Shown piece by piece: positions 116 to 62,907 of a stretch of DNA of 64,000 bases (its first letter is position 1; every line of letters begins with the position of its first letter). This DNA is from Podarcis pityusensis (lineage: Eukaryota), in assembly GCA_964106645.2 (NCBI GenBank), contig OZ067048.1; one strand, given 5' to 3'. The notes under the pieces are model-generated. The model saw only the letters and a program-made list of their open reading frames with translations, was not told the DNA's origin and did no database searches. Both the position numbers and the translations under genes were made by a program.

Positions 116-3100
116 CTGGCAACAAAGAAGGCGGAGGGGGGTGAGACCAGAGGGTCCGCAAGAGGCCAGGCCTCCCCCAGATAGATAGATAGATACATTT
201 TATTCGCATTAGCCAACGGCCATAGCAACTTAAAACAAGCAATATATACAAATAAAATATATACAGTGGTGCCCCGCAAGACGAATGCCTCGCAAGACGG
301 AAAACCTGCTAGACGAAAGGGTTTTCCGTTTTTGAGTTGCTTCGCAGGACGAATTTCCCTATGGGCTTGCTTCGCAAGACGAAAATGTCTTGCGAGTCTC
401 GAGATTTTTTTTTCGCTCCCCCCCCCTTTTTCTAAGCCGCTAAACCGCTAATGGCCTTTTAGCAGCTAAGCCACTAAGCCGATAAGCCTTTAATAGCCGC
501 TAAACCGCTAATAGCGCTAATCCGCTAATCCGCTAATCGGGTTGCTTCGCAAGACGAAAAAACCGCTAGATGAAGACACTCGCGGAACGGATTAATTTCG
601 TCTTGCGAGGCACCACTGTACAAATAAAAAAAGACAGCAATGGGTATAAAGGGCAATCAAATGACCAAGATTATCGTTCAGATAGTGGCCCTTAATCTCA
701 TTGCACCCTCGATAAACCTAGCAACCTTCGCTGTTGTCCGATCATTTTGATCCGATAAAAGAAAGAACAATGTGGCCTCAGATGGGCGGCCTGGGATGGT
801 AAGTAAGAGTGGGGTGGTGATCTCATTCCTCAGATCTTTATAGAGGGCAGGACAGGAGAACTTGAGCCACTGGTCCCCCCCCCCCCCGGTCCACAGGACT
901 CACCTTCCCTTGGGCCACCAGCTCTCTCTGGGCGGCTGAGGCTGCTTTCACCAAGGCACTGGTTGCGGCCGCAATGGACTTGGCAGCCTCCAGAATCTGC
1001 TCCTCAAAGTTCAGGCTCTCATCTGCCTGCTGTTGGGGGGAGAGCAGAGTCAGCGGGGAGAAAGGGGAGGGCGGGATCACCTGCCATTGTTGCAGGATTT
1101 CGAAGCACCCCCAAACCCCACATTCAGAGACCAGGCCAACAGACCCCTGGGAGGGACTAGGGTGGCCTCCAGCAGCAGCCCCTGGGCAGACGGGTGAGGG
1201 GATGAGGGTGGCATCTGGGGGGCCCAGGGGACCTCCTGGGGGCAGCCCAGCTACCCACCTTGGGTTTTGCACGCGGCTTCAGCTGCTCCAGCTTCTTGGC
1301 GGCAGCCTCAATGGCAGCAGCGGCGCCCAGCAGCTCGTTCTCGGCGATGACGGTGGGATCCTCAGGGTCCACCCATTCCGTCCCTGGTGGGAGAGGGAAG
1401 CAGGAGTCAGGAGGGCAGAGAGCCGTTCCTCCCTCCCCCAGGAGCCCCAACAAGACCCCACCCATTTTGTTCAGGTGGGCATTTCTTTCTCCTGTTTCAG
1501 AGGGGTCCTTTCCAGAGAGGGGAAGCAGGGGGCCTCGCCCGGGGGAACCACCCACCTTTCATGGCCTCCGCTGCCTGGATGAGCTCCGTCACCGAGCCGG
1601 CCACTCGCTTGGAGTACGCAGCCAGCTGCTGCTTCAGGTCATGGCTGGGTTTCTGGAGGATCTGGAGCAAGATCGGGGGGGGGGGGGAGACAAGGGGTGA
1701 GCCATGCCCAGACCTACAGGGGGAGGGCGGAAGGTGGCGCGTGTCTTGGGGAGGGGAGGGTCCCCCCTGGCAGGGGCTCGCCTGCAGCAGGGCACCCAGG
1801 GGTGGGGGCCGTGGAAGACATGGGCTGCCCATTCCCAGGCACCCTGGAAAGAACCACAGGGGAAGCCCCCCGGGGGTGTAGGGGGTGAAGAGGAAAGTCC
1901 AAAGGAAGCCTGGGGAAAGGGGCAAGGAAGGTGCAAGAGGCTGAAGGAGGGAGGGGGCAGTTTTCCAGGGAGGGGAGAAGGTGGAAAGAAGAGCAATGGA
2001 GGTTCAAGGCCACACAGACTTCCCGGCTCCATGAGCTGCCCAGCAGCAGCAGGGCGAGGGGTCAGGGAGACCCTGAAGCTGCCTCCCCTGGAGCAGCCTG
2101 GGCACCTCTTGTCAGTTTGCATTTCTTAGTGCAGAAAGTATTGATCTGATGTGCAGAGATCTTTCCTATTCTACTGAATTCAAGAGGGTTCTGGAAGCAT
2201 CTCTGTGTGAAAGAAACAAGCAGAGGGTTCCTGATGTATGGGTTCTTCCTTCAGATATACTGAGTACAGTTGGCTTAAACTGGTTCTCTTATCCCTTCTG
2301 TCATGCTGACTATACTAAGAGGCCAGAAAGAGCCTGTTTTTCACTTTCTGTCTCTCTTCCTTCTGGTGTTCTGTACATAGTATGCTTAGTGTTATGCTTT
2401 AGACTTATTATAAATTAGTGTACGTTTAAGTTAAGTCTGCTGCACATGGATTTCTTATGGACAGGGCCAATCCTGAATGTATTGGATTTGTGACCATTCT
2501 GCTCATTTGCCTCCAGGAGCAGTAAAGCTCTGCTGGATGAAATATAATTGCCTATGGTCTATTTTTTGGGAATCTGCAACATGCTTGTTGCTCTGCTAAC
2601 TACACATCAGAGTTCTGCTCTGGATCAATATTGAGTAGAATTTCATTGACACCTCTAAGGGAGGCTGCTTGGCCTCAGATCTCAGAATCGCAAGATTTAA
2701 AGGGACCCCAAGGGCTCATCTAGTCCAACCCTTTGCAGTGCAGAAATCCCGGCTGCCCTGACCCTGGGTGACAAGGAACCTTCCGGGCCGCACCCCTGAG
2801 AGTGGGAAGACCTTCTTTTGCCCCTCCTCCCCCCAACACAGAGAGGCAGGCAGAGCTGCCGGCTCAGGCTAGTCATGGCTGAGCCGGGATTAGAACCCAG
2901 AACACCACTGTCCAACCCTGACCCAAGTGAGATGTTAGCCACACTGCAGTCGGGACTGGCTCCTAGCGGTTATTCACCACGGCATCCCAGAATCCAACAC
3001 AGCACAGCAGAACGGCAGGCACACAGCAAGGGCCCAGAGTTAAGGGGGGCAGGAGAGCCTGGCTCACCCCTTACTTCTGCCAGGAGACTCCCCCCCCATG

Positions 3101-6100
3101 CGCGTGAGCACACCCCCCAGGTGCCACACACTCCCATGCAGGGCACTCCATACTCACAGGCTGCCCAGAAGAGAAAGAAAGAGAGAGGAGAGAGAAGAGA
3201 AAGGGGGTGAGCAGGGAGGAGGAGGAGGAGGCTGCTGGGGGGGCAAAGGGCCCCCGCCCCGAGATCCAGCCTCCGCCACGCAGGGTACAGGGCAGAGGGA
3301 GGCACACGCACTCACCACCAGCACGTGCTCCAGCAGCTCCAGGTAACCGTTGGCACACTCCTTGCCAAAGCGCAGCGCCCGCTGCCGAACCTCCGCGTTG
3401 GCCTCTGGGTGGTAGGCAGCCTCCTGCAAAAGCCCCACAGGTGAGAAACAGCCTAATGCAGGAGCCTGGCAGGGTGGTGCCAGGGCTGGGGCACTGGGCA
3501 CAGGTTTGCTGGGCACAGGAGAGAAGCATCCAGAGCCACGCTGGGTCCGGAGAGCCCCTCTGGCTTAGCAGCTCTTCCAAGATCCTGGCCGAGCCTCCTT
3601 TGAATTGTAGAATTGTGGAATTGGCAGGGTTGACACATGTCTGGTTTCTCCAGACAGGTCTTCTTTTTGGGGTGCAACATCTCAGTCTGGGCGGATTTTT
3701 TGAATTTGCCAAAATGTCTGGGTTCTTGCAAACAGAGCCAGGAAGTGTGCGTGCGAGGATCACTCTTAACCTTTTCCTATTTCTACAGTGCGCCTGCATG
3801 GTGCATTTGGGGACTGGGCTCGTCATCAAACAGCAGGTCGGTCCTAGACCTCTCTGAGCTGTTGGCCATACTGGTGCCCAGGAAGCCGCCCCTGGGCAGG
3901 CGGGAAAAACTCCCTGAAGGAGGGTCTCTGCTGGCACCTTCTTGCTCTGGCTCCCCTTCCCCACCCCAGGGCCTTGTCCATTGATTGCAATGAAGCCAAC
4001 TCTATTTTGCAATATCAGAAAGATCTAAGAAAAGAAACAGAGCGCTGGCAAGTAAAGAGGACCCCCCCCCCCGCTCTCTCTGTCCTAATTAAAAGCTTTG
4101 GGGGGCATTTGGAGATGAACCAAATCACCTTGGGTACCTCTAAACACAATTCTTGAATGTAAGTTAAAATACACAGCTCTCATGGAAGACCAGGGAAAGC
4201 CCCCCTCCCCATTTTTGTGTGTGGGGTGTGTGCCCTATTTTATACATCTCAAAATCTTAGCAGACTGAAGAACCTAGAAAAGAAAGTGCTGGGGGTTGGG
4301 GGGGGGAGAGTGGAGGAAATGGCGGAAGCACTGGGCACCCCATTTCCCCCCTAAAAGTTTGCTCCTTTCCTTTGGTCACCGTTCTGCTTGGATCTTCATA
4401 TTGTATTTCTTCTTGCCCTTATGTGACCCCCAAACCAAGGAGATAAGTGACTATACAACCTTTAGAAGGCATCTGAAGGCAGCCCTGTGCAGGGAAGATT
4501 ATAAATGTTCCATGTTTTATTATGTTTTTGTGTATGTTGGAAGCCACCCAGAGTGGCTGGGGCAACCCAGTTGGGTGGGCGAGGTATAAATAATAAAATT
4601 ATTATTATTGAAGATGATGTCCCTATTTTCAATGGAGAAATGTTTGAGGGCACAATGTGCCCAGTGTGTGCGTGCCATGGAAGGTGCGGGGGCTCCATGT
4701 CCTCTTTTTCGCTCTTTAAAATAAGGCAACCCTATTCTAGTCCAACCCTCAGAAATTCAGGATTCGCACCTGGAGCCTCGTAAATGCACTGCCCCCATCC
4801 TCCGATGACTGTCCAAGGGGGTCCTGTGAGCTTGCCCCACCTGTTTCCAAGGATGTCCCCCTTCAGCTCCCCCCACCGTGAGCATGCCCCTCCGCTTCCC
4901 ACCTTGCAAGAGCGCAGCATGTCGGCAATGGCGCGGCGGCTCAGGTTGGCCGTGGCGATCACGTCCTCCTGCCGGCACGAGTTGCCAGCTGCCACAGCCT
5001 TGGCAGTCGCCATGGTGATGCCTTTGGTCATGCGGATGAAGTCCTCCGGCGTTGAGGTCTTGGCGGGCGGCACCTGGGAGCAGAAGACCTGCGGGGGACG
5101 GGAGGTGGTCAGCCTGGCCGGGAGAGGAGGTAGAGGGTGGGGCAGAGCAAGGGGGCAGCAGCCCCAGCCCCCCTCCCGCCAACGCACTCACCGCAAGCTC
5201 CTGGCGGATGTGCTCAATTGTGGCTTCCAGCGCTCGGGTCCCCTTGGTGGCTTCGTCCTCCACGGCCTTCACCGTCTTCAGCAGCGACGTGACGTTGGTG
5301 ACCATCACCTGCCAAGCAGAAAAGGGTGACCTTTGGAGGGGGGGGAGGAAGAGGGCTCCCTGCTCCCTACAGCCCTAGGGGAACTTCCTCCCTTGGGTGG
5401 CCATAGAATCTAAGCATTGCAGAGGGGGAAGGGACCCCTGGGGGTCATCCAGTACAACCCCTACCATGTCACAACCAAATCATCCCTGAGAGGTGGAAGC
5501 TCTGCTTAAAAAACCCCAAGGAAGGAGAGCCCACCCCCTTCTGAGGAGCCTGCTTTCCCTACACACCCCACTCTGCCCCACACACGTGCCCATGAGCTGC
5601 TGCAGAGTCTCCCACCTTGGCTGAGTTCTTCAGCTGGTAAACGGCCGGGTCATCGCCAGACTTGCCCGCGGCAGCCTTGGTGGCGCTGATCAGGTCCCCA
5701 AGGGCCTTGGCCACGTCCTTCACGGCATTGATCAAGACCACCTGAGCGCAGAGAGGAGAGGAGGAGGACATGAGCAGAGCCTGCAGCTGGATCAGGCCCA
5801 AGGGGGTCCCCCCACGGGAAGCCAGCAAGCAGGATTCGAGAGCAAGAGCCGTCAGATGGTCAACGGAAGGACAGACCCAAGGAGAGGGGTGACCCAGCCA
5901 TTGTGGCCCTTACCTGCGTCTCGGGGTCCTCCGAGCCCAGGCTGGCGGCCCCCAGCTTCACCACCTCGGAGAGGCGTGTGATGGTGGCCACAGAGGACTG
6001 GGCAGCCTGTGCCAGCTTCTCCTGGCTGGCCGTGGCGTTCTGCACCAGCACCTTGGTGTCCTCCACCAGCGCCTTGGCCGTCTTCAGGATGCCCTCCCTG

Positions 6101-9100
6101 CCAAAGAAATGGGGTGGGAGGGGTTAGGAGGTGGCCAGGAATTCTGGAAGGCCTGTTGGAGGCCACATGGGAACCGCTGGGGGCCACTACCTGTGGTCGG
6201 CAAAGGTCTCTGCGTTTTCGCGGTTGAGGGTCCCGGCTGTGGCAAACATGATGGTGGTGTCCAGATCCGCGATGATGCCAGAGACAGCGCTGGCCGCTGT
6301 GATGCAGGCCTGGGTTCCCCGGTTGCCTGCCTGGAGGGCGGCCAAGACGTGCGACACCTGCGGAGGGAGACAGGACAGCTGGCCTCCCATCGGCACTGGG
6401 CTGACCCCCAGCACGGTCCCAGGAGAAGATCCCAGGGGGAGGAGACAATGCAGGCGTGTGTTGGTGTGGGAAAATGTTAGGAGGGGATCTGCTGGATCCG
6501 GCCAGTGGTCCCTCTAGCCCAGCATCCTGTTCCCACAGTGGCCGACCAAAGGGAAACCAGTAAGCAGGATCTGAGCACGAGAGCCACTCGTTTCCAGCCA
6601 CTGCTGCCTCCAACCTCCGAGGGGAGAGCCCAGCCAGCAGAACCAGCTCCTCTGCCCAGAGGCCACTGGGTGCTGGTGTCACTGGGCCCTGGCCTCCCTC
6701 CCCCCCCCAGCCCAGGCAGGCAGGCACCTTCTCGGAGACCCTGCGGGCGCACTCAATCAGCTCCTTCTTGGTGTAGGTGTCGCTGGGGCTGCACTGGAGG
6801 GCTCCCGCCTTCGTCACCAGCGCCGCACAGCCGTGGCCCAACTCCTGTACCCGGTTCTTTATGTGGGAGCCAATCTGGAGGGGAAAGAAGGCTGTGGGAG
6901 CCTGGCTGCGTGGCGCTCATCTTCTGCCCACACCTCCGTGTGCGGCTGCTGCTTCTCTCCACCAGCCCCACCTGACCTCCAACCACCCCTTTCCCCATTC
7001 CAGCCGCCAGAGGCAACAAGGTCCTTCTCAGCCTTCTGGGTTCAGGAAGAGCAAGAAGAACCCAACGTTTGATGCCCTGCCAGCCTGAGGCTCACAGCTC
7101 TGGGCAAATCAACCAGCTCCCCACCACATCCCTGCCCCACTGCCCAACCACCAGGGACGTCCCCCCCCCTCACCTCATCATTCTCAGCCGTGATGGCAGC
7201 CGGCTTAGCCTGGAGCGCCAGCTGTCCGTAGTCGCTGGTGAGCTGGTTGGCCAAGGTGCCCAGTTCGTCCGGGTTGGTGGTGGATTTGGTGACCTGGAAG
7301 AGGGTAGGGGCAGTTGAAGGGGGAAGAAGAGAGAGGCACCCCCAAATCCTGGCAGAAGGCAGTCTGGCCAGGAGGCGGAAGGAAGAGGGGGGGTTCTCAA
7401 AGGGGCCTGGCCCAGATCCCCCCACGGAGGCCTCCCCCACAACACCCCCAATGCCTCACCATCTCCTGGACGGTCACAGCGATGGCCTTGGCGGTCTTCA
7501 CCATGGTGGTCTGGTAGTCCACAAAGGTCCCCTCTGGCTCTCCCACGGGGCCCTCATCCAGCTGGGCGGGAAGAAAGAGAAACATCTCCTTTCAGAGGAC
7601 ACCAAGGCTGCCTCTGACCCCCAAGCGGCTGAGCTCCGCTGCTGGCCCTGGAAGCACCCTGGCCTCTGCTGCCTCTGCAGTAGGAGGCCCACCCCTGGAC
7701 CCAAGAGGCACCCAAGAAGCTCCCAACGCCTTTCTGGAGACAACCCTGTGGGGGGAGGGAACTTCCTGGGGAAGCCCGGCAGGGAGTGCCGTATAAATCC
7801 AAGGTGGTGGGTTGGAACAAAGGCACCAGGAATTTCAACGTAAAAGGGAGCAGACGTGGTCTGATTACTTGTTCCATGTCCAAAGTGGAAATGAATCCAG
7901 CAAACACAACCGACTTCTGGGGAGAGGAAAGGGCAGATTGATCTCTTTCTGATTGATCTCTGCTGACAGATCATTACGTGGTGATTGACAGCAATCAGAT
8001 AGAAGGTCTGGTGATCAAATCACTCTGCGTTAAAGTCACGCAAATGCTCTGACCAAGGCTGTTTGAGCCAAGGAACTGACATCATGTTCAAACGCCACAT
8101 AATAATCCTTTATGGGTATAAGATCTGCATCTTCTCTTTTTTAAACATTTATGGGACAAGATAATCTGTAACTTAAAGAGATTTCTCTGTCTACTGATGA
8201 AATTTCACAATTGGAAAGAGCTGCTTTCCGTCTTTAAGAAGAAGAGAAGGAAAACTGGTTAAGTGTCCAAGGCAGAGCAAAAAGCCTGATTTATGGTTGA
8301 CAATAAAGATTAAACATATGAGGGAATTCCTCATGTGAAAAATCAATATTTGTTTTTCTTTCAAAAGAAGAAACTGGGAACTGAAAGAAAGATGGCCATT
8401 ATTTCCTGTGTGGGAAAAGATTATTGTAGTGACAGTGATCTTAAGGTGGAAATCTTAGAGTCGGGAATTATGAAAAGATTGAGTTGTTAATAACATCAAA
8501 AACATCCAAAGTATCCAGTTTGGCAAATATATCTTTGGCTTCCCCAGTGACTGTTGGTATTATTCGGCAGTTGATGGCTGAACAATTAGAAATGATCAGA
8601 TTGCTGAGAGCATTTGCAGATGACTTAGTATTGACGTTACAGGAGCCAGAATCTAGTACTAAAAGGGTTTTAGAATTAATTAGAATTAATTCAAGAATTT
8701 GGTCAAGTGGCAGGATTTAAATTGAACAAGCTAAAAACTAAGGTTTTAGAGAAAAATTTAACACCGATTGAAAGAGAGAGGTTTCAGAATGAGACAGGCC
8801 TGACTGTGGTTAAGAAAGTGAAATACCTGGGGATTAATATGGCAGCCAAAAATGGGAACTTATTTAAAGATAATTATGAAAAATGTTGGACGGAAGTGAA
8901 AAAAGATTTAGAAATCTGGTCAAATTTGAAGCTTTCACTGTTGGGTCGTATTGCTGTGATAAAAATGAATGTATTGCCTAGAATGTTGTTTTTGTTTCAG
9001 ACATTGCAAATTGTGGACAAGATGGACTGTTTCAAGAAGTGGCAGAGAGATATTTCTAGATTTGTCTGAAAAGACTATTTACAGAAATATTGTAAAATTA

Positions 9101-12100
9101 ATGAATGATAGAATGATGTTGGATAGTAATTAAGCGGTTTCCAGCTATAATGTTCTAAGAGAATATGAAAAAAGGGTTATAAATGGGTTAAAATCTAATG
9201 GTAAGGATTTGCTGAACCAATAAATTGAAGTGGAATACAAAAAAGGGAGGTACGAGGAGGTCCGGGAAACAAGCTAAAGGAAAATAAGTAATAGAAAATA
9301 TGTGTGTTTTTAACTGTTTTTATTTTTTCTTTTTCATTTTTCTTTTTCATTTTCACTGTAATATTTCAAAAAACTTTAATAAATATCTTATAAAAAAATT
9401 TAGAAATGATCAGATTGATGTTTCATGAAAAGGGAAAAGAAAAAGAATCAGAGAGATATGAAATGAAAAATGGAACCGGAGATTAGATTTCAGACAAAAT
9501 CGATGAAAAGTTGGTAAGACTGGAGAAAGCAGGTGGTGAAATGGAAATGCCTTTCATCTGGGGGCTTGGAGGAAAAGGGAAAGATAAAATAATAAATGGA
9601 AAGATAGATATGAATGAAAAAACACAGTTGACAATGACTAATAATAATAATAATTTGGAAACCCCTCTTGGATTTTCGTGGGAAAAAGAAATGAATGATT
9701 TTGAGACACGTGGACTCAGAATAAATATTACTGCACAGAAAGTGGAGAAGATGGATGTTATCATGGACAGAATGTCTTAAATAACATTTTTTATGTAACT
9801 GGTGGATGGAAAATTGGAGGTCCTTTTTATCTTTTTTAATTGTATCTTTCCGCTTTCTCTCTCTTTTCCTTTGCTTTCCTTTTTCTCTCTCTTTCCTTTC
9901 TTCCTGTTTCTTTCTTTCTTGTTCTGGTAGCTGTTTTCATTTCTGCTTTTATTTATGTTAGTTTTCTATATCTTACCATATTACGAAATCTTCAAATAAA
10001 AATCTTAATGTGAATGCAGCAAACACAATCAGGATTTGCTTTTGCTACTCTTTTAGTCTGCAAATGATACACAATTGATAACATTCCCCCTAATCTTCAA
10101 CTGTAGTGTAATTAGGCAATTATGTAAAATTCCGCTACGGTGGAGTGGGACAAAGAACATTTTTGTGGGAAGCAGAAAACTGCAGCCGAAGAAACAGTCC
10201 TACGTGTGACGAGGAGGCGGGAACAGACCTCCCTGCCTTCTCCCCTCCCCTTTGGGGGGGCCCATTAAAATTCAAAGGGGGGGTTGCGCTCTGGGGAAGG
10301 AGTCGCACCTGGTTGATGGCTTGAGTGATGGAGTCCACCATGCCGCCAACCACGCCTGCTGCGCTGGCCGCCTCGTTCAGGGTGGCCGTCAGGTCCTCCA
10401 CGGCCTCCTTCATCATCTGCGCAGACTCCTCGAGGGCTTCCTGCGTGTGGGCTGCTTGCTGTGGGGGGAGAAGGCGATGCATCACCTGCTTGCTCAGAAG
10501 CGCCTCGCTGCTCATCATTCCCATCTGAGCAGACACTGGTGTGGCGCCCCCCACCTGCCCGGCAGGCCCCTCTGGGAACGGCAGAGCCAGCCTCCCTCTC
10601 CCTGCCCCAGAAGAAGAAGAGGAGTTTGGATTTGATATCCCGCCTTTCACTCCCCTTCAGGAGTCTCAAAGCGGCTCACATTCTCCTTTCCCTTCCTCCC
10701 CCACAACAAACACTCTGTGAGGTGAGTGGGGCTGAGAGACTTCAGAGAAGTGTGACTGGCCCAAGGTCACCCAGCAGCTGCAGGTGGAGGAGCGGAGACG
10801 CGAACCCGGTTCCCCAGATTACGAGACTACCGCTCTGAACCACTACACCACCCTGGCTGGCACCTTGGGGTTCCCTCCGGCCTCCTTGGCCGTGTAGAGC
10901 ATCTGCAGGGCCGACTCTGCCAGCGTCTTCGTCTGGTCCAGGAGGTTCATCTGCTGCTGGCTGTTGAGGGTCTTGGAGGCAGCCCCCACGGCCGCCAGAA
11001 CCAGCGGCTGAAAGTACTGAGCCAGCTGAGAGACCTGGAGGGAGAGAAGGGGCAGGTGAACGGGGGGGGGGGGGGAGCAGAATCCCAGTCTCCCTGGCAG
11101 GGGGCACACAGCGCCAGGGAGGCCAGCCCTCCTGCAGCTCCTGCCTTAGGCACCCTGGGCGCAGAAGAGGGCCACGTCTGAGAGAGGACACCCCTCAACA
11201 GCTTTTGCCGTGTGATTCAGTCACAATGAGCAAAACCTCAGCAGAAGAGGAGAACCGCAAGGAGGGAGGCAGAGGAGGAGGAGGGAGAGGCAAAGGGGCT
11301 GCTCTGGCACTTCCCTTCAGCAGCCTGAAGAGTCTGCCAGGAGAACCCCTGGAATGCCACTCTATGCCACAGGAGGGCAGGAGATCTCCCCAGTGAGCGC
11401 CAGGGGACAAGCACCCCTTCTGGACTGAGTTTGCTGCTTTGCTCATCAGCCTGGTTGCCATGGCATTGAAGGCAAAGCCTCAGGTACGCCAGAGACCCTG
11501 GAGAAGAGATCTCTGGCCACACCTAAGGCCTCGCCCTCAATGCCAGGGCAGCTGGACTGCCCTTCGCTCTCCCGCCCGCAGCTCCTTCCAGAATCCCAGG
11601 CCCACAGAAGTCCCCTCTCTGGCACCAGAGGTCCAAAGCCTCCCCTTTGCTTGCTGGTATTCTTCCTCACTCCAAATATGCCATCATCCCTCACAGGAAG
11701 AGCCCAAGCCAGGCCACTGCCCCCCCTGGCACAGGGCTTCCTGCACAGGCTGGCAGCAGTGGCTCTGCAGGGATTCAGGCAGGTGGGCTGCCAGTGGGGA
11801 TGGAAGCAGGAACCTTCTGCCTGCCCAGCAGCTGCTCTGGCCCTTCCCCACCAGCAACTCTCGTTAGGCAGCCCTTGGCTCTGCCTTCTTCCAGCACCCC
11901 CCCATCCCTGCCCCCCACCAGCCCCCCATCTTCTTACCTTGTGCCCCAGCTGGGAGGCCTCGGCTCGCGCTGCCCCAGCCACCGGCTCAATGAGGTTGTT
12001 GATCTCCTGGACGGCCGTGAGCATCTGGTTGTGCAAGGCCTGCGAGGGAGGGAGGGAGAGTTCCTGGCAGGCCCATTTGGGGAAGGGGGCACGAAGCCCA

Positions 12101-15100
12101 CCCGCCTGATGCCATGAGTGGGGAAGACCCAGCTGTTCAGAGTCAGAGCCCCACAGGTTCCCCCCTCCCCACAAACACTAGAGCCCAGCAATCCCCCTGG
12201 CCCACAGGGGCAGCTCCTGACTGGGAAGGTGTTGCAGGCACAGCAAAGGGACTGGGCAGGATTTGTCCCATGTGGGCTGTGGGCCTGTTTTTCACCAGTG
12301 AAAGGATGTTTCCTATTCCAATGACTGGTCTCCTGCCCACCGCTGGCATCCTGGATGGCGGCTAATAGATTGAGGTTGAATCCTGACAAGACAGAAGTAC
12401 TGTTTTTGGGTGACAGGAGGCAGGCAGATGTGGGGGACTCCCTGGTCCTGAATGGGGCAACTGTGCACCTGAAGGACCAGGTGCGCCACCTGAGAGTTAT
12501 TTTGGACTCACAGCTGTCCATGGAGGTCAATTCTGTGTCCTGGGCAGCTACCAGCTCCATGGTAGCTGGTACGCAGGCTGAGACCCCACGTGCCCGCAGT
12601 CTGCCCAGAGTGGTGCATGCTCTGGTTATCTCCTGCTTGGACTACTGCAATGCGACCTACGTGGGGCTACCTTTGAACGTGACCCGGAAACTGCAGTTAA
12701 TCCAGAATGCGGCAGCTAGACTGGTGACTGGGAGCAGCCACCGGGACCACATAACATCGGCCTTGAAAGACCTACATTGGCTCCCAGTACGTTTCTGAGC
12801 ACAATTCAAAGTGTTGGTGCTGAACTTTAAAGCCCTAAACGACCTCAGCCCAGTATACCTGAAGGAGCGTCTCCACCCCCATCGTTCTGCCTGGACACTG
12901 AGGTCCAGCTCCGAGGGCCTTCTGGTGGTTCTCTCCTTGCGAGAAGCGAGATTACAGGGAACCAGGCAGAGGGCCTTCTTGGTAATGAAACCCGCCCTGT
13001 GGAATGCCCTCCCATCAGATGACATCTGATGTCAGCCCTGTTTAGGAAAGTTTTTAATGACTGATGTTTTAATGTATTTTTAATATTTTGTTGGAAGCTG
13101 CCCAGAGTGGGGAAACGCGGCCAGATGGGTGGGGTATCAATAATAAATTATTATTACTCGCTCACTCACCTCCTGAGAAATGCCCTCGCGAGGTGCCAAC
13201 TGCTGGCTGATGGCGGCCAAGGACGCCTGGTCCACGTCCCGAATGCACTTGGTCAGCAGCTCAATGGCCTCGTCGCATTCCCGCTGGCCAGGAGCCTTGT
13301 CTCTGCCAGGAGGAGGGCAGACCATCAGCGTGGCTGAACCCACCAAACACCCAGAGCGGCCAACACCCTCCCCCTGGCACAGCCCTGGCAGCGCGGGAAG
13401 GCATGGCGGGCACCCGGCACCCCCACCCGGCAGCTGTGGGTCTCACCTCATGTTGGTGATGAGCTTCTTGATGGAATCGGAGACGGTCCGCGAGTGTCCG
13501 GCCAGCACTGACCACTTGGGTGGGTCCTTTGGGTTGACGGCCAGAGAGCGAGCTGTCTGGATGAGGCCGGCGGAGCTCTCCAGCATGGTCTTGGCAGAGG
13601 AGATGATGGGCTCCATGGCTCTGCGCCCCTGCAGGGGTGGGGGGAGCGCCAGGTGGTCAAGGGGAAGCTGGTGAGCAAGTGGGGGCACAGCTGGGGCTCT
13701 GAGAAGCCCCCCACCAAGTCTAACTCCCTGCTCCCCCGAAAAGGATGCTGCCCTTGGCAGCAGAGGAAATTACCCCCCACCAGGCCCTGACTGGGTCCTG
13801 CCCCCCGACTTACCTCTGGGCTGATCTGAGCAGGAACGGTGGCAAACTCTGGGTTGGAGGCAAAGGCGGTCAGGTTGTCCACGGCCTCAATGAGGGGGGA
13901 AGTGGCCTCGCGGCAGCGCTCCCGGTTCTCTGGGGTGAAAGCGCCGTCCAGAGCCTGCAGGGAAGGACAGAGGGACGGGCAGCACTGGCCTTTGGGCTTC
14001 CTCCCCACAGATTAAGCCCACGGCCCAAGAGGACGTGGGGCTGCCAGGGTGGACTCCCCACTCCAGCAGCTCCTCCAGGGACAGGATCCCCTGAGCTCCC
14101 CATGAGAAGGACCAGGCCCTTTGGGTCGAATCCTTCAGCTCCAGCCAGCGCCGCCCCTCCCCTGAATCTGCTTTTTGTCAGACGCCAAATACTTCTGGGA
14201 TTGCTCAGCCAGCAGCTCCGTTCCTGGCAGGCAAATCTACTGGCGCAGCGACAGAAATGAGCCTCCTTTGACGTCCAGCGGCTGCACCAGCAAATTGTCC
14301 AGCCTGGCTCTGAGGCTTTTCTCCTTCATTTTTGTGTTCATGAAGGTAATGATCTAATCTCTAATCACTAGTCCTCGTGTGAAGGACGAAGGACCACTTT
14401 CCACTCTGTATCACAGCCCCTAAGCCCGCTTTCAGAGCTCCGGCTCCTGGCTCAAGACCGGCTCCCCACGCCGCTTCACGGGCTGAACCCCAGAGACTGG
14501 AGCAGGGAGCCCTTGCTCTGCGTGGGGAAACAGGGGGAGCTTTCCCTTGGGAGCTGGTGGTGGCAGAGCAAGGCCAGGGAGGGGCTGCCTCACCAATGCT
14601 TGCCCTTGACCAGAGAAAAAAGGGGGGGGGGAGAGAGCTTGAGAAAGAGAAAGAGATGGGGTGGGGTGGGGGAGAGAAAACACAAAAGAAAGAGGGAAAG
14701 AAAGAGAGGGAGAAAAGAGAAAAAGATTTAAAGGGGAATAGAGAAAGAGAGAGAGAAAGAAAGGAGGGCTTCCCCCTTCCCAGGCTCATCACAGTGTCAT
14801 CCCACCCACGTGACCCGACACCTGTCAATCAAGTACCTTGATGGTCTTGACCAGGTTGGCGGTGCTGTTGGCCACCTCCTTGGCAGACTGGACAAACTGG
14901 CGCTTGGCCACTGGGTTGGCGGTGCGAGATGAGGCCAGCCGGCAGGTGTTGCAGAGGGCAGAGGTGTGCTTGGCCACGATGGTGGCGGCTGAGAGGACCT
15001 GCGGGAGGCAGCGGAGGGTCCTCCACGTTAGGCCACGGCAGGCGGACGGCAGCCAGGGAGGTGGGGGGCCTGCAAGTCCTCCTGCCTGGCCCCTGGAGAT

Positions 15101-57200: not shown

Positions 57201-58973
57201 ATCTAGTCCACCCCCTGCAATGCAGGGGTTACAGCTAAAGCATCCCTGACAGGTGTCTACGCGACCTCGGATTCAAAGCCTCCAGCCGAAGTGAAGGACG
57301 ACCCTTTTTGTGGCCCACCCCACCTGCCCAGCTGGGGCTCGGCAGCGAAGCTCCTTCCTTTAGTTCTGGGAGCATCTTCTTGAGGACAGGTAAGCAAAAT
57401 GGGGACTGACAAAGGTGAAACTCGGCTGCCCTATTGCTCTCTGTACTATTCCACCTGAGGTGTTACTGGTAAAAGTGATATTTCAAGTGATATTCCAAGT
57501 GATATTCCAAGCCCCCCCCCCCCAAGCTCCTGCTTCTCACCATTGCTCCTCTGCACAGCTGTCTCTGTGGTGGCAGGACGGGGGGGGGGGGTGAGAGAGG
57601 GAGAGCTCACCCTCCAGATCTCTTGGGCACAACCTCAGGGGCCCAAGCTGCCTGCATTTGACAATGTTATGGAAATTAATGATGTGCCGTTATAAACATA
57701 CAGGGATGAGTGCATTTGCAAATACACGTCTCCAGGTGTGCCAACTGGATTTTTTTGGGGGGGGGACACACCCAGGTAAGCCCCGTCCCACAGAATCGAT
57801 CACATGACGCAGTGCACGTACACCATATGAATGGCAATGCCCATTAACTTTGGGGGTGCCTGGCCTCCTAAAAAAAATTATTGGGAGGGGCTGAAGGGAC
57901 CTCGGCCCCCAGGCGTCACTACTCTGCCCTTGTAGACAAAACACCACGGCCTCTGCCTGCAACTCCAGCTAATGCAATAGGAGCTGTTGTGGAAATGGAC
58001 TTTGCAACATAACTTGGTGAAATATCACTTTTACCGGTAACACCTCAGGTGGAATAGTACAGAGAGCAATACGGCAGCCGAGTTTCACCTTTGTCAGTCC
58101 CAAAGCAGGAAATGGTTCCTGAGCCTCCTCTCTCTGTAAAACTGGTTTTAGAGGTATTGATAACTCTGCATGATGTGTGAAAACAGGTTCTGGAGTCAAG
58201 GTATTTCAAAAGAATGGCTTAGGCTGGCCAGCAAACGGGAATCAGTAAATGTTTCCAGGTATGTTGACAGACAGGAGACAAGCTACACTCAAATTTCTCT
58301 TTCTGTGATGCTTGTATGATTCTTTTAGTGGGTTTTGGTTAAGGGGTTGAGGAAAGCTCTTAAAAGCTGTTATTCACCTTTGTTCTGGGTCATCCTCACC
58401 TCCTTGTAAAGTGGGGGGGGGGGCTCTGTTGCAATAGAAAAATAAAAATCTGCCTGCTTAGACTGGGTCCTGCCTCCAGCCCTCCTTCTCTGACCATTCA
58501 TGGACATTGGGGACTCTCTTAATGGGCAGCTGGACTGCGAAAGCTAACCTCAATTTTTCATGTAACAATGGCCGTTGCCCATTGGTGGAATTGGGCCATT
58601 TCTGCTTTCCTCAGCACTCAATCATTTAGTGTGGCAGCATCTACACCCTGGAACTCCCTGCCTATTGATATCCGGCAGGTGCCTTGTAGTCTTTTTGGAG
58701 CCTGCTAAAAACATTCTTCTTTTGACAAGCCTACCCTGAAAATGCTTAGAAAGTTGATGTGAATTTTAATCAGTTTTAATATTTTAACTTTCTGTATTTT
58801 TAAAGTGCTCTTGTAATTTTTTCTTGATTTTCTTGTTTTATCTTTTTGTAAAGCTGAGGGTGAGTTTTTTTGAACAAGTGGAGTACATGCTCAAATAAAT
58901 AGTCCGTTTTCCTTGGGGGCTCCTGGCCCTGCTGCCTGACCCTGACACCCTCCGTCTCCCTCCCTCCCTCCAG

Positions 58974-59108
58974 ATGTTGTGCCCAGAGGAAATGGCTTCT
59001 CTGGCAGATGAGGACCTCCTTGACTTCCTCCTCCAGGATGGAGGTCCCTCAGCTGATCTGGGCAAGGGAGGCTTCCTGCCAGAAGACTGGGACTTTCCAG
59101 GGCCCGAG
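58974..59108 (+). CDS. CREB3: CREB3 first coding exon
   Basis: ccctccag|ATG; [21 protein letters not shown]...FPGPE|gtgagt; 135 nt. Confidence 0.88.
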
Positions 59109-59655
59109 GTGAGTGCCAGCTGCCTTGGGCAAGCCAGGGGTGGGGTTGCTGCTGCTCCAGCTCCCCCCCCCTTGCCTCACGACCTCCTTTCCCTCCAGGC
59201 CTTGGGCGAGGAGGAGGTGGACGACTTTCTGAGGTGCCTCCTGAGCCCTTTTGCAGAAGAGTCCAGCGGCTCGCCGGACCCCTCCCCTCCTCACAGCAGC
59301 AGCAGCAGCCTTGCCGAAGAGCAGAACTTCTCCTGCAGCCCTGCAAGCTGGGAGGGGTCCCCCACTGGCAGCCCCGCCGGCTCCGAAAGTGTCCAGTCCG
59401 ACCACAACTACTCCCTGCACCCGACGCTGCCTGGGCCCCCCAAAGGTCCTGCGCTGGAGAACGTCAGCTCCTCCTCGGATGTGGGCGACGGGGATGTCGC
59501 CATTGACCTGGGTGAGTGCCCAGGGCATCTGGGGTGGGGGGTCCATGCAATGTCCCTTGGGGCAGGCGCTGAGCTGGGCCAGAGCAGGCAGGCGCTGAGC
59601 TTTCCCCTGTGCTTGCTGACGTGGTGCTGCAGAACCTCTCTCTCTCCTTCCCTCC

Positions 59656-59708
<53 letters not shown>

Positions 59709-62700
59709 CTGAGTAGCTTCTTTAGGACCAGGAAGGAGAGAGTAGGAAGAAATGGACAGTTCCCCCAGCAGAGGGAATCAAGGGGTATCTGGACTGGGAC
59801 CAGTGCATAAATAATAATAGTGGTAATAGTAATAGTAGTAGTAGTAGTAATTATAATAATAATAATAAATCTATTTATTTATTTATACCTTGCCCATCTG
59901 TCTGGGTTTCCCCAGCCACTTGGATCAGCTTCCAAAAAAAAGATTAAAAATACATTAAAACATCAGTCATTAAAAACTTCCCTAAGCAGGGCTGCCTTCA
60001 GATGTCTTCTAAAAGTCTGGTAGTTGTTTATTTGCTTCCTGGTGGGAGGGCATTCCACAAGGCGGGCGCCACTACCGAGAAGGCCCTCTGCCTGGTTCCC
60101 TGTAACCTCACTTCTCACAGGGAGGGAAGCACCAGAAGGCCCTCGGGAGATGGACCCCGGTGTCCGGGGTGGAGACGCTCCTTCCGGTCTACTGGGTCGA
60201 AGCCTCCAGAGCAGGAGAAAACAAGCTGGCTCCATCTTTGATTTGTCACTCCTGCTTGGGAGCTTCCCTGGGGCAGGAGGAGGATGCTGGACAAGGGGGC
60301 CCACTGCCCTGGTCTGACTCGCGGCTGGTCACTCTCTCTGCCCCCCCATCTCTCAACCCCCCCCTCCGCCCGGGAGCTGCCATCGCCCTGAGCAGGGTCT
60401 GATGGGCTGGAGAGCTGTTCCCTTTGGGATGCCTTGGAAGGCGAGAGGCAGCGGTTGGGCTTGTTGTTTGCACACACCTTTTCCAGCGGCCAATTAGCCC
60501 CACTTCCTCACATGCGCCGAGCGCCCTCCTCAGTGGGCAGGTGAACAGTAATGGACGCACAGAGAATGCAAGCGGTGAGGGAATGAAATGCAAAAAGCAA
60601 GAGATTTTTTTTTTTTAATGATATTTATTAAAGTTTCACATAGAAAAAGACACATCAATAAGAAAAGAATTTAAAAATAAAATGAAGAATACACAATACA
60701 AAATACAAAAAGAAAAAAAAGAGTTAAAAAACAGTTAAAAACAATTCCATCTTTTCATCACTACTTTTAAATTTACTTATTTTCTGGACCTCCTCATACC
60801 TCCCTCTTTTGTATTCCAATTCGTTTGTTTGTCCAGCAATTCCTTTCCCTCCTTTTTGATCCCAGTCCTTAATCTTAATATAATGTAACATTAAATTTTT
60901 ACCTATTAATAGCCAATTTTCCATTCTTTTTACCTTTTTAATCCTAATCATTAATATTAATCTGTATATAACTTTAAAGCCTGTACAGCTAGAAACCGCT
61001 TAATTTCAATCCATCATCACTCTAACATTCTTTAATTTTGCAGTATTTCTGTAGGTAATCTTTAAATTTCTTCCAATCTTCTTCCACCAACTCTTCTCCC
61101 TGGTCACGGATTCTGCCAGTCATTTCCGCCAATTCCATATAGTCCATCAATTTCATCTGCCATTCCTCCAGTGTGGGTAGCTCTTGTGTCTTCCAATACT
61201 TTGCGATAAGTATTCTTGCTGCTGTTGTTGCATACATAAAGAAAGTTCTATCCTTTTTTAACACCGATTGGCCGACTATGCCCAGGAGAAAGGCTTCTGG
61301 TTTCTTCAAGAAGGTATATTTAAATACCTTTTTTAATTCATTATATATCATTTCCCAGAAAGCCTTAATCTTTGAGCACGTCCACCAAAGGTGAAAAAAT
61401 GTACCTTCAATTTCCTTACATTTCCAACATTTATTATCAGGCAAATGGTAAATTTTTGCAAGCTTGACTGGGGTTATGTACCACCTGTATATCATTTTCA
61501 TAATATTTTCTCTTAAGGCATTACATGCCGTAAATTTCATACCTGTGGTCCATAACTGTTCCCAGTCAGCGAACATAATGTTGTGTCCAACGTCTTGTGC
61601 CCATTTAATCATAGCAGATTTCACCGTTTCATCCTGAGTGTTCCATTTCAGCAGCAAGTTATACATTCTTGACAAATTCTTAGTTTTGGGTTCTAACAGT
61701 TCAGTTTCTAATTTTGATTTTTCCACCTGGAAGCCAATTTTCTTGTCCAAATTGAATGCCCCAAAAGCAAGAGATTGCCCCACGGTGAAACTGTTTCTGT
61801 GACCTCATTCACAAAGGAGCGTTGGCAGTGCTGATTTTGGGCCCGATCCGTTTGGGGCCAGGAGCAGCCTCTTTCTTGGCTGGCGCGTGGGATTGGGGTG
61901 GAGCCACGAGCGCTGCCATGTTCTCATGACATCCTTGCACCGCCCGGGGCAAAGTGTGCCAAGGAAGGAGAGCAGAGGGGTGTGTCCCCCCCCCGGCAAG
62001 CCTGGGCCCTCTGGCCTCGTGGCCCCTTCCACCCCTGACTGTGCGGCCCCCTTTCCTCTTCCAGAGATGTGGGAGATCATGGAGACTTCGTCAGAGTCCT
62101 GCTTCAGCGATCGGGACAGTGCTCTTCCAGTCACAGTTTCCATTGAGGAACCGACACCCCAGCCAAGTGGGGGGGACCTGCAGGTACAAGACAGCCGTGT
62201 GCCCCCCTCTGCCCCCAATATGCCTGGCTCTCGGGGGAGGCTCCCACAGGGGCTTCCCTTCTCCTGCCTCTTGGGGGGTGCAGCCTGGCAGACGCCCACC
62301 CAGCCCTACCTCTGAATGTGGTGCTTTTTCAGTTTGACTTCCCTCAGCTGATTCTGACGGATGAGGAGAAGAAGCTTCTGGAGAAAGAGGGCGTCTCGAT
62401 CCCTTCCAACCTGCCGCTGACCAAGGTGGGTGCCACAAACTCTGCACGTGTGCGTGCGCACCCTTGCCCTGAGGTGCGCTTCTGGGCACGGTGGGCAGAG
62501 GCAAGTGGGAAATGGGGGTGTAATTCCTGGCTGCAATTCCTGCTTCTCCCGGGGGGGGGGGGCTTTCTGGATGGGCTCTCTGTTTTTCTCTGGTGAGGTC
62601 CAGGTGCTTGATTCCAGAGTAAAGGAGGGCCCTTCCTACCAGGGGGTGGTGCTTTTATAGCCAGCCTCCTGTACTTCCCGGGGTGAATGCCCCTTGGGGG

Positions 62701-62907
62701 TTTTTGGGGGGCACGTCCTCTTTGCTCCTGGGTGAACTGGAGGAGGGTTGCTGGCTGCCAGCCTGGCCCTGGCTGACCCTCAGAGCCCTGTGCCCTGCAG
62801 GCCGAGGAGCGGGTTCTGAAGAGAGTTCGCCGGAAGATCCGGAACAAGCAGTCAGCCCAGGACAGCCGCCGGCGGAAGAAGGTCTACATGGACAGCCTGG
62901 AGAGCAG
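58974..62907 (+). CDS. CREB3: CREB3 (Luman/LZIP) ER-anchored bZIP transcription factor, 5' part (continues beyond window)
   Basis: Acidic LxxLL motif (DLLDFLL), HCF-binding motif DHNY (59400-59411), [15 protein letters not shown]...LPLTK segment, basic region [22 protein letters not shown]; head-to-head synteny with TLN1. Confidence 0.92.
59199..59511 (+). CDS. CREB3: CREB3 coding exon 2
   Basis: [15 protein letters not shown]...VQSDHNYSL...DVAIDL; 313 nt. Confidence 0.9.
59636..59701. repeat. (CT)n microsatellite
   Basis: Direct read. Confidence 0.95.
59820..60190 (-). mobile_element. L2-type LINE 3' fragment
   Basis: Reverse complement of the L2 tail and [14 protein letters not shown] segment. 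Confidence 0.85.
60607..61762 (-). mobile_element. L1-type LINE, 5'-truncated, young
   Basis: Uninterrupted ORF2 C-terminus with CCHC motif (CWKC...HLWWTC); polyA tail; 14-bp TSD AAAAGCAAGAGATT (60593-60606 and 61763-61776). Confidence 0.92.
62065..62183 (+). CDS. CREB3: CREB3 coding exon 3
   Basis: [14 protein letters not shown]...GGDLQ; 119 nt, phase 1-0 consistent. Confidence 0.8.
62333..62425 (+). CDS. CREB3: CREB3 coding exon 4
   Basis: [31 protein letters not shown]; 93 nt. Confidence 0.93.
62801..62907 (+). CDS. CREB3: CREB3 coding exon 5 (bZIP basic region)
   Basis: [35 protein letters not shown]; 107 nt. Confidence 0.95.

Follow-up and report, generated by a model that had tools for sequence, protein, structure and literature searches.

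A three-nucleotide talin-1 microexon in Podarcis pityusensis, almost certainly conserved from fish to birds, that would add one proline to rod domain R12

Talin-1, the central force sensor of integrin adhesions, is encoded by TLN1, which was called previously single-isoform by Gallego-Paez et al. (2023), who described exon 17b (PMC9997659, available part). Like the microexon reported here, exon 17b is an in-frame cassette exon in the talin-1 rod, and it has been argued to alter mechanosensitivity; unlike the microexon, it is 51 nt long, enters the rod elsewhere, after Gln665, and has been studied experimentally (PMC9997659). A word search of that paper for "microexon", "R12", and "proline" returned no occurrence. 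By analogy, the talin microexon would work most like the microexon of cytohesin-1/2/3, which is also a conserved 3-nt exon adding one residue within a folded domain (PMC6314551, available part). In the cytohesins, the exon acts as a diglycine/triglycine switch that places a glycine in the PH domain, has a high PSI in cell lines, and has a proven effect on lipid specificity (PMC6314551); in talin, by contrast, the added residue would be a proline in a helix of a force-bearing bundle, and PSI is apparently low.

For talin-1 itself, a 3-nt exon has been reported in mammals. Li et al. (2015) noted in human TLN1 a micro-exon of 3 nt whose splice sites are conserved among mammals; exons shorter than 6 nt were then left out of their analysis, and their discovery data sets came from human brain, muscle, and nerve, the tissue for the TLN1 exon not being stated in the available part of the paper (PMC4317164). 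In the MicroExonator mouse table of Parada et al. (2021; supplementary file 2), a 3-nt CCG exon is entered as chr4_-_43534160_43534163, within intron 43533968-43534389 (∼420 nt) of ENSMUST00000030187, with a coverage of 57, one match, a vertebrate conservation of 2.36, and no entry in GENCODE; the exon is assigned to cluster E2 ("Excluded"), and brain, heart, skeletal muscle, and adrenal show no difference for it from embryonic to postnatal stages (PMC7821500, available part). The available parts of these two sources neither name the intron or the residue nor discuss function or non-mammalian conservation. The mouse row gives no gene name, and we take ENSMUST00000030187 to be Tln1; the intron presumably lies ∼2.5 kb from the Tln1 3′ end, where intron 50 would be expected.

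The stretch of DNA analysed here (the window; 64,000 nt of contig OZ067048.1, assembly GCA_964106645.2, from P. pityusensis) contains most of TLN1 on the minus strand, and full-length lacertid talin-1 proteins map to it as 52-53 segments running from position 32601 to 53. By protein search, the exon 50-51 region of the window was 99-100% identical to talin-1 of Podarcis, Lacerta, and Zootoca. The relevant exons are as follows:

23305-23255, minus strand: orthologue of exon 17b
3316..3423, minus strand: TLN1 exon 50 in human numbering, 108 nt, encoding EAAYHP...LEHVLV and ending in phase 0
1556..1661, minus strand: TLN1 exon 51, starting in phase 0 with ILQKPSHDLK...

Numbering was anchored on the segment ending in Gln665, which corresponds to human exon 17 (PMC9997659, available part). 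From this anchor, and provided that no later introns differ, the segment 3423..3316 is exon 50 and the full intron 50 occupies 3315..1662 on the minus strand (1654 nt); the placement of the microexon in intron 50, proposed in an earlier note on this DNA, was therefore correct in human numbering. The exon 50 product corresponds to human talin-1 residues 2221-2255 (PDB 6R9T) and also matches the R11-R12 crystal structure 3DYJ. On the 2542-aa lacertid talin-1, the insertion point was likewise rightly given as following residue 2255; when exon 17b is included, the proline would follow residue 2272. Within intron 50, the microexon and its surroundings are organised as follows:

3161..3315, minus strand: upstream intron of the microexon-included form, short (155 nt)
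3207..3213, minus strand: branch-point-like TGCTCAC, the A at 3208, 48 nt upstream of the acceptor, being the candidate branch nucleotide; putative function
3167..3207, minus strand: pure, CU-rich polypyrimidine run of 41 nt within a 71-nt AG-free zone, a likely U2AF/PTBP site (predicted binding)
3161..3163, minus strand: acceptor CAG
3158..3160, minus strand: 3-nt microexon CCT (Pro), seen in the sequence and matched by isoforms, with the predicted product LEHVLV-P-ILQKP
3152..3157, minus strand: donor GTGAGT (GTGAGTA follows CCT)
3135..3140, minus strand: TGCATG, matching the RBFOX consensus and lying 18 nt beyond the microexon (predicted binding)
3097..3101, minus strand: second GCATG, at +57 from the microexon
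1662..3157, minus strand: downstream intron of the microexon-included form, 1496 nt

The TGCTCAC, CAG, CCT, GTGAGTA, TGCATG, and GCATG elements lie where the earlier note had placed them, whereas its estimate of about 35 nt for the pyrimidine tract fell short of the 41 nt found. The CCT triplet sits between a canonical AG and GT (CAG-CCT-GTGAGT), and its length is within the 3-27 nt range of microexons. With phase 0 on both sides, the reading frame is kept and no stop is introduced; isoforms of relatives carry the proline in full-length proteins, which bears out the proposal of a frame-preserving 3-nt exon. Eight AG-NNN-GT words occur in intron 50, and only at the CCT site are a pyrimidine tract and a GTRAG donor found together. 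When the site was compared with the 52 mapped acceptors of the gene, its pyrimidine fraction (1.0) was above their maximum of 0.92, and its 71-nt AG-free zone was longer than that of 51 of them. PWM scores were lowish, in the lower fifth for the gene (acceptor above 9 of 52, donor above 10 of 52). A TGCATG within 70 nt downstream was found at none of the 52 real TLN1 donors, and the 25.3 kb of TLN1 introns contain five TGCATG in total.

The motif YAG-NNN-GTRAG preceded by at least 80% pyrimidines occurs once in the 25,322 nt of TLN1 intron, and at least one such 3-nt site was present in 2 of 200 dinucleotide shuffles of the 25.3 kb. A factorised calculation gave a chance expectation in TLN1 introns of 0.009 for length 3 and 0.26 for any length from 1 to 30 nt. 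Given that the site criteria were chosen post hoc, and that the expectation over lengths 1-30 reaches 0.26, the sequence by itself is only suggestive as to the reality of the microexon.

Protein models from relatives were then compared at the exon 50-51 junction. From a set of 392 proteins, 52 that failed to span the junction or to fit the pattern were excluded, leaving 340. An extra residue was found in 40 of these 340 junction-spanning talins, and in 40 of 40 it was proline; this proportion is not a frequency, because the sample, drawn from the best 120 of 2206 and the best 120 of 1587 matches plus cluster look-ups, was enriched on purpose for proline-containing forms, at which the second search was aimed. 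The 40 proteins belong to 25 species, namely 3 lizards, the Chinese alligator, 11 birds, the spotted gar, and 9 teleosts, so that conservation at the protein level extends across lepidosaurs, archosaurs, gar, and teleosts. In Lacerta agilis and Zootoca vivipara, talin-1 isoforms read LLEHVLV-P-ILQKP, and their sister isoforms lack the proline after residue 2255. The lacertid models are identical around the proline to the exon 50-CCT-exon 51 product of the window. NCBI RefSeq models with a single proline at the same junction include XP_033020520.1 (Lacerta agilis), XP_034956389.1 (Zootoca vivipara), XP_016853738.1 (Anolis carolinensis), XP_025050767.1 (Alligator sinensis), XP_025000407.1 (Gallus gallus), XP_015193087.1 (Lepisosteus oculatus), and XP_020563504.1 (Oryzias latipes). 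Such NCBI predicted models draw on RNA evidence; those with the proline are automatic predictions that carry no description, tissue data, or function.

Same-gene isoform pairs differed by the proline alone in 18 of the 18 cases tested (3 lacertid; 4 alligator or anole; 11 from medaka, gar, shad, halibut, chicken, and ptarmigan, with one halibut partner sequence common to two species), so that included and skipped forms both exist as predicted annotation models of relatives, not as reads. A shifted splice site was considered as the source of the residue in this window and rejected: moving the donor by +3 would add Val and moving the acceptor by -3 would add Gln, and the proline must therefore come from the CCT exon. 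Among the matches listed, none with the proline came from a turtle, snake, gecko, amphibian, or lamprey or from TLN2, and no mammalian protein was listed; in the junction-spanning TLN2-type rows, mostly partial models, the insertion was found in 0 of 26. In the first protein search, comprising 97 matches of up to 2000 aa, no insertion was seen, and the proline appeared only among full-length NCBI isoforms. A metagenome scan for orthologous introns yielded one locus among at least 588 pattern matches, which was TLN2-type, covered the last 2 kb of the intron only, and contained no convincing microexon. Two further junction or isoform differences were observed in these comparisons: a Val is missing at the junction in three Ensembl-type rows, and elsewhere in talin another one-residue isoform difference, Gln1787, occurs in Varanus, a gecko, and two snakes.

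The age of the annotation appears to matter. All 23 proline-containing rows for which an accession was shown fall in the series XP_015-XP_048, whereas among listed rows with accessions of XP_050 or later, which are not a random sample, the proline was found in 0 of 47. In both Anolis carolinensis and gar, an older X1 model has the proline and a newer X1 model does not. We infer from this pattern that a change in the annotation pipeline dropped the exon from newer NCBI models. The expectation that standard annotation would miss the exon thus holds for these recent models and fails for the 40 NCBI isoforms that carry the residue.

The exons reported in human TLN1 and in mouse share with the window exon their 3-nt length and conserved splice sites, and the mouse CCG, if it is in phase 0, would be a proline codon as CCT is. 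It is very likely that the window exon and the mouse/human 3-nt exon are the same, the mouse intron being matched to intron 50 by its approximate place in the gene. CCT in the window and CCG in mouse differ by a synonymous change, both encoding proline, and CC is not favoured by the splice consensus; these two points suggest, from sequence comparison, that selection may act on the proline residue itself. The microexon is almost certainly conserved from fish to birds, and likely in mammals. The exon is therefore not new, contrary to the earlier note, which knew of no description: it stands in databases as 40 NCBI isoforms from 25 species, and probably in two papers, having been reported as a 3-nt TLN1 exon in human and probably in mouse. 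In the literature on talin, TLN1, and TLN2 microexons and on R12 autoinhibition, with subscription journals mostly outside the search, we found no functional study of the TLN1 3-nt exon; nor did we find in print where it falls in R12, how it is conserved across bony vertebrates, or what it does. The supplements of PMC12626420 (12 of 13 files), PMC10639058, and PMC5630039 (23 of 27 files) contained no TLN1 3-nt exon. A bioRxiv paper on QKI and PMC9580925 mention TLN1 in other contexts.

The surroundings of the exon suggest how its inclusion might be regulated. The microexon would be skipped by default, given that so short an exon leaves no room for enhancers, that its -2/-1 positions at the donor are non-consensus, and that the CU-rich tract is open to PTBP1; the mouse row and the dominance of models lacking the proline also point to default skipping. 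Inclusion would occur in cells with little PTBP1 in which RBFOX occupies the (U)GCAUG elements downstream. SRRM3/4 (nSR100) targets have as their signature a UGC close upstream of the acceptor, and in the window the sole TGC within 60 nt upstream lies at -53. RBFOX elements downstream and PTBP1 upstream are the typical layout of alternative micro-exons (PMC4317164, available part), and in the window the exon is preceded by a CU-rich tract and followed, in its flank, by (U)GCAUG. On this layout, RBFOX/PTBP control may hold or may not, and we regard the two outcomes as evenly poised. A switch-like neural inclusion was not seen: the mouse exon is classed as Excluded and is unchanged in brain, and in the available zebrafish neural microexon tables the talin entries are a tln1 exon of 18 nt and a tln2a exon of 6 nt, with none of 3 nt (PMC12626424). 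The SRRM4 (nSR100) neural class was rejected on account of the missing UGC near the acceptor and the missing neural switch in the mouse and zebrafish tables. The neural and muscle splicing programme envisaged in the earlier note likewise finds no support in the mouse E2 cluster, which shows no brain, heart, or muscle difference, or in the zebrafish neural lists. The microexon is a member of the conserved vertebrate frame-preserving alternative microexons.

To describe what the proline might do, R12 was modelled by AlphaFold with and without it, using 14-row alignments. Both models were five-helix bundles, with an rmsd to 3DYJ of 0.8 Å without and 0.9 Å with the proline. Helix 4 of R12 spans residues 2229-2258 in these models, and the insertion lies three residues short of its end, in the last turn, as expected from the proposal that the proline lies near an R12 helix end. 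By DSSP, the helix was still continuous in the model with proline. Local pLDDT fell from 94 to 83 upon insertion, and the number of residues at or above 90 fell from 91 to 51; the evidence is weak, with 1 of 13 companion alignment rows carrying the proline, and the drop may reflect only the scarcity of such rows. On a helical wheel, Leu2257 faces the core, and with the insertion Ile takes the core position and Pro a side position, while the L, Q, and K at the helix end are rotated by ∼100 degrees. The proline would thus take the side position of Ile2256, with Ile moving to the core position of Leu2257; the core would be kept, helix hydrogen bonds would be lost, and the helix 4-helix 5 hairpin would gain one residue. 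Helix 4 would be kinked without unfolding of the bundle, giving a slightly looser R12 "lid".

Cryo-EM of autoinhibited talin-1 shows R12 covering the F2-F3 PIP2 site as a lid that is loosely attached through E2288, E2294, and D2297, and weakening this lid raises vinculin and actin binding (PMC6856716, available part). As the acidic end of helix 5 caps the PIP2 site of FERM F2, a less stable R12 could favour opening and access for vinculin and actin. The F2 contacts (E2288, D2297) lie ∼30 residues downstream of the insertion, at the far end of helix 5, and any effect of the proline would therefore be indirect. It is possible, though we hold it only tentatively, that the proline has a measurable effect on R12 stability or autoinhibition; with similar reserve, it might modestly destabilise R12 and so favour opening.

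Taken together, these data make it almost certain that CCT is a genuine 3-nt cassette exon of talin-1. The explanation that we favour as a whole, and consider probable, is a conserved cassette exon whose proline produces a minor, cell-type-restricted isoform with a looser R12 lid. A chance motif or an annotation artefact is most improbable: the expectation of 0.26 for any exon of 1-30 nt in these introns, and the ambiguous mapping of ∼22% of 3-nt inserts in general (PMC4317164, available part), would allow for it, but an identical residue at an identical junction recurs in independent annotations of 25 species, and placement is unique both in intron 50 of the window and in the mouse row (one match). 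The earlier note had also suggested a recursive (re-splicing) point, from which the inserted triplet would normally be removed again. Recursive splice sites have a GT directly after the AG and lie in very long introns. Here a strong acceptor does adjoin a consensus donor, and mature mouse mRNA mostly lacks the exon (PMC7821500, available part), but CCT separates AG from GT, so that use of the donor includes the proline; moreover, the intron is only 1654 nt long (∼420 nt in mouse), mature isoforms with the proline are annotated in the 25 species, and the Val-less Ensembl-type rows represent loss of a residue and not clean re-splicing. Re-splicing does not fit this locus and is very unlikely.

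Two further accounts accept the exon and dispute its effect. The +Pro protein could be a negligible by-product of an exon that is real and conserved, with selection acting on an intronic element (branch point, tract, or decoy sites), for example on the timing or fidelity of intron 50 removal. The mouse "Excluded" cluster with its total coverage of 57 (PMC7821500), the absence from the available zebrafish neural lists (PMC12626424), and the newer NCBI models without the residue all lean this way; on the other side, each of the 25 species encodes proline here, as does the mouse row despite its changed third base, and a role in RNA only would not obviously fix the codon; the exon was common enough to appear in the transcript-based models of many species. 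We consider this account unlikely. Somewhat less probable is an effect of the proline on a surface through which R12 binds F2, an adjacent rod domain, or another ligand, rather than on the mechanical stability of R12, in the manner of the one-glycine cytohesin microexon. The fold kept in the model with proline, the rotation of the helix-end side chains, and the cytohesin precedent of changed lipid specificity (PMC6314551) would agree with such an effect, but in the available parts of the talin literature examined we found no ligand-binding site described for the helix 4-helix 5 hairpin, no ligand is known for unfolded R12 (PMC8697387, available part), and the known F2 contacts are distant (PMC6856716).

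Returning to the cassette exon that we favour, the isoform with proline is likely minor and cell-type-restricted, and, given the excluded cluster in mouse, it may be too rare to matter. A bolder version, which we regard as somewhat unlikely, is that strong inclusion in a specific adult cell type kinks R12 helix 4, makes the domain unfold at lower force, and leaves talin pre-opened to membrane, vinculin, and actin; the one-residue splicing switch would have been kept since the fish-tetrapod split. To the known exon, this analysis adds that it maps to R12 and that it extends beyond mammals, and it cautions that recent automatic annotations appear to have dropped it. From gar and teleosts through to birds, a single proline has been retained at this junction, in a helix of the domain that keeps talin closed, and such conservation would be odd without a role. 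As a one-residue change, it is a minimal and clean perturbation, suited to the magnetic-tweezer and autoinhibition assays already available for R9-R12. Should inclusion always be very low, the exon is a curiosity only; if the proposed effect is true, it would provide a second mechanosensitivity-tuning isoform of TLN1, overlooked by the talin field and by current annotations.

The talin-1 isoform carrying one extra proline after residue 2255, encoded by a 3-nt microexon, was found in older NCBI accessions (XP_015-XP_048, where an accession was visible) and in 0 of the 47 newer ones (XP_050 or later) among those listed, which suggests that 3-nt exons are systematically dropped by current annotation pipelines. 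Other features in and around TLN1 were also recorded, as follows.

1031-1029 (-): tandem CAGCAG (NAGNAG) acceptor of the exon beginning QADESL
10458-10456 (-): codon for Gln1787, first in its TLN1 exon
23305-23255 (-): lizard counterpart of human TLN1 exon 17b, a cassette exon of 51 nt, MVESRRPRTLSAPDPKT, inserted after Gln665
25012-24695 (-): single 318-nt coding exon, where human numbering apparently requires two exons before exon 17
57564-57541 (-): AG...GT stretch of 24 nt that lies 5' of the TLN1 coding region and has a good pyrimidine tract
about 58900-62900 (+): exon-like ORFs resembling CREB3
260-620, 8000-10100, 12330-13150 and 61022-61804: transposable-element-like intron insertions

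In Varanus, Paroedura, Pantherophis and Notechis, paired isoforms differed in having or lacking Gln1787, as expected of a NAGNAG acceptor. In the window, the acceptor of the exon with this residue reads CAG|CAA, at which a NAGNAG-type shift would not be possible. One-Gln variation is possible at the tandem acceptor of the QADESL exon.

An intron may have been gained or lost at the 318-nt exon, which presumably matches two human exons, judging by the numbering and sizes of the human exons. The 24-nt stretch could be either a non-coding upstream exon or a chance occurrence. The plus-strand ORFs may belong to CREB3, the head-to-head neighbor of TLN1; a Pfam scan of one piece of them gave no match. 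The intron insertions include an apparently LINE-like, AT-rich fragment with remnants of short ORFs, plus other repeat-like stretches.

Further small insertions were seen in fish talin-1 protein models (P0274/P0275 and P0353/P0287). The Denticeps model has six additional residues after 2332, possibly encoded by the 18-nt neural tln1 microexon in zebrafish lists, and the Alosa model has 13 after 2075.

Human exon 17b is an in-frame 51-nt cassette exon (Gallego-Paez et al. 2023, PMC9997659). Its lizard counterpart was present in annotated lacertid talin-1 isoforms. Because talin-1 isoforms longer by 17-22 residues were found in birds, crocodilians, turtles and fish, this exon, like the proline microexon, looks to be of old origin.
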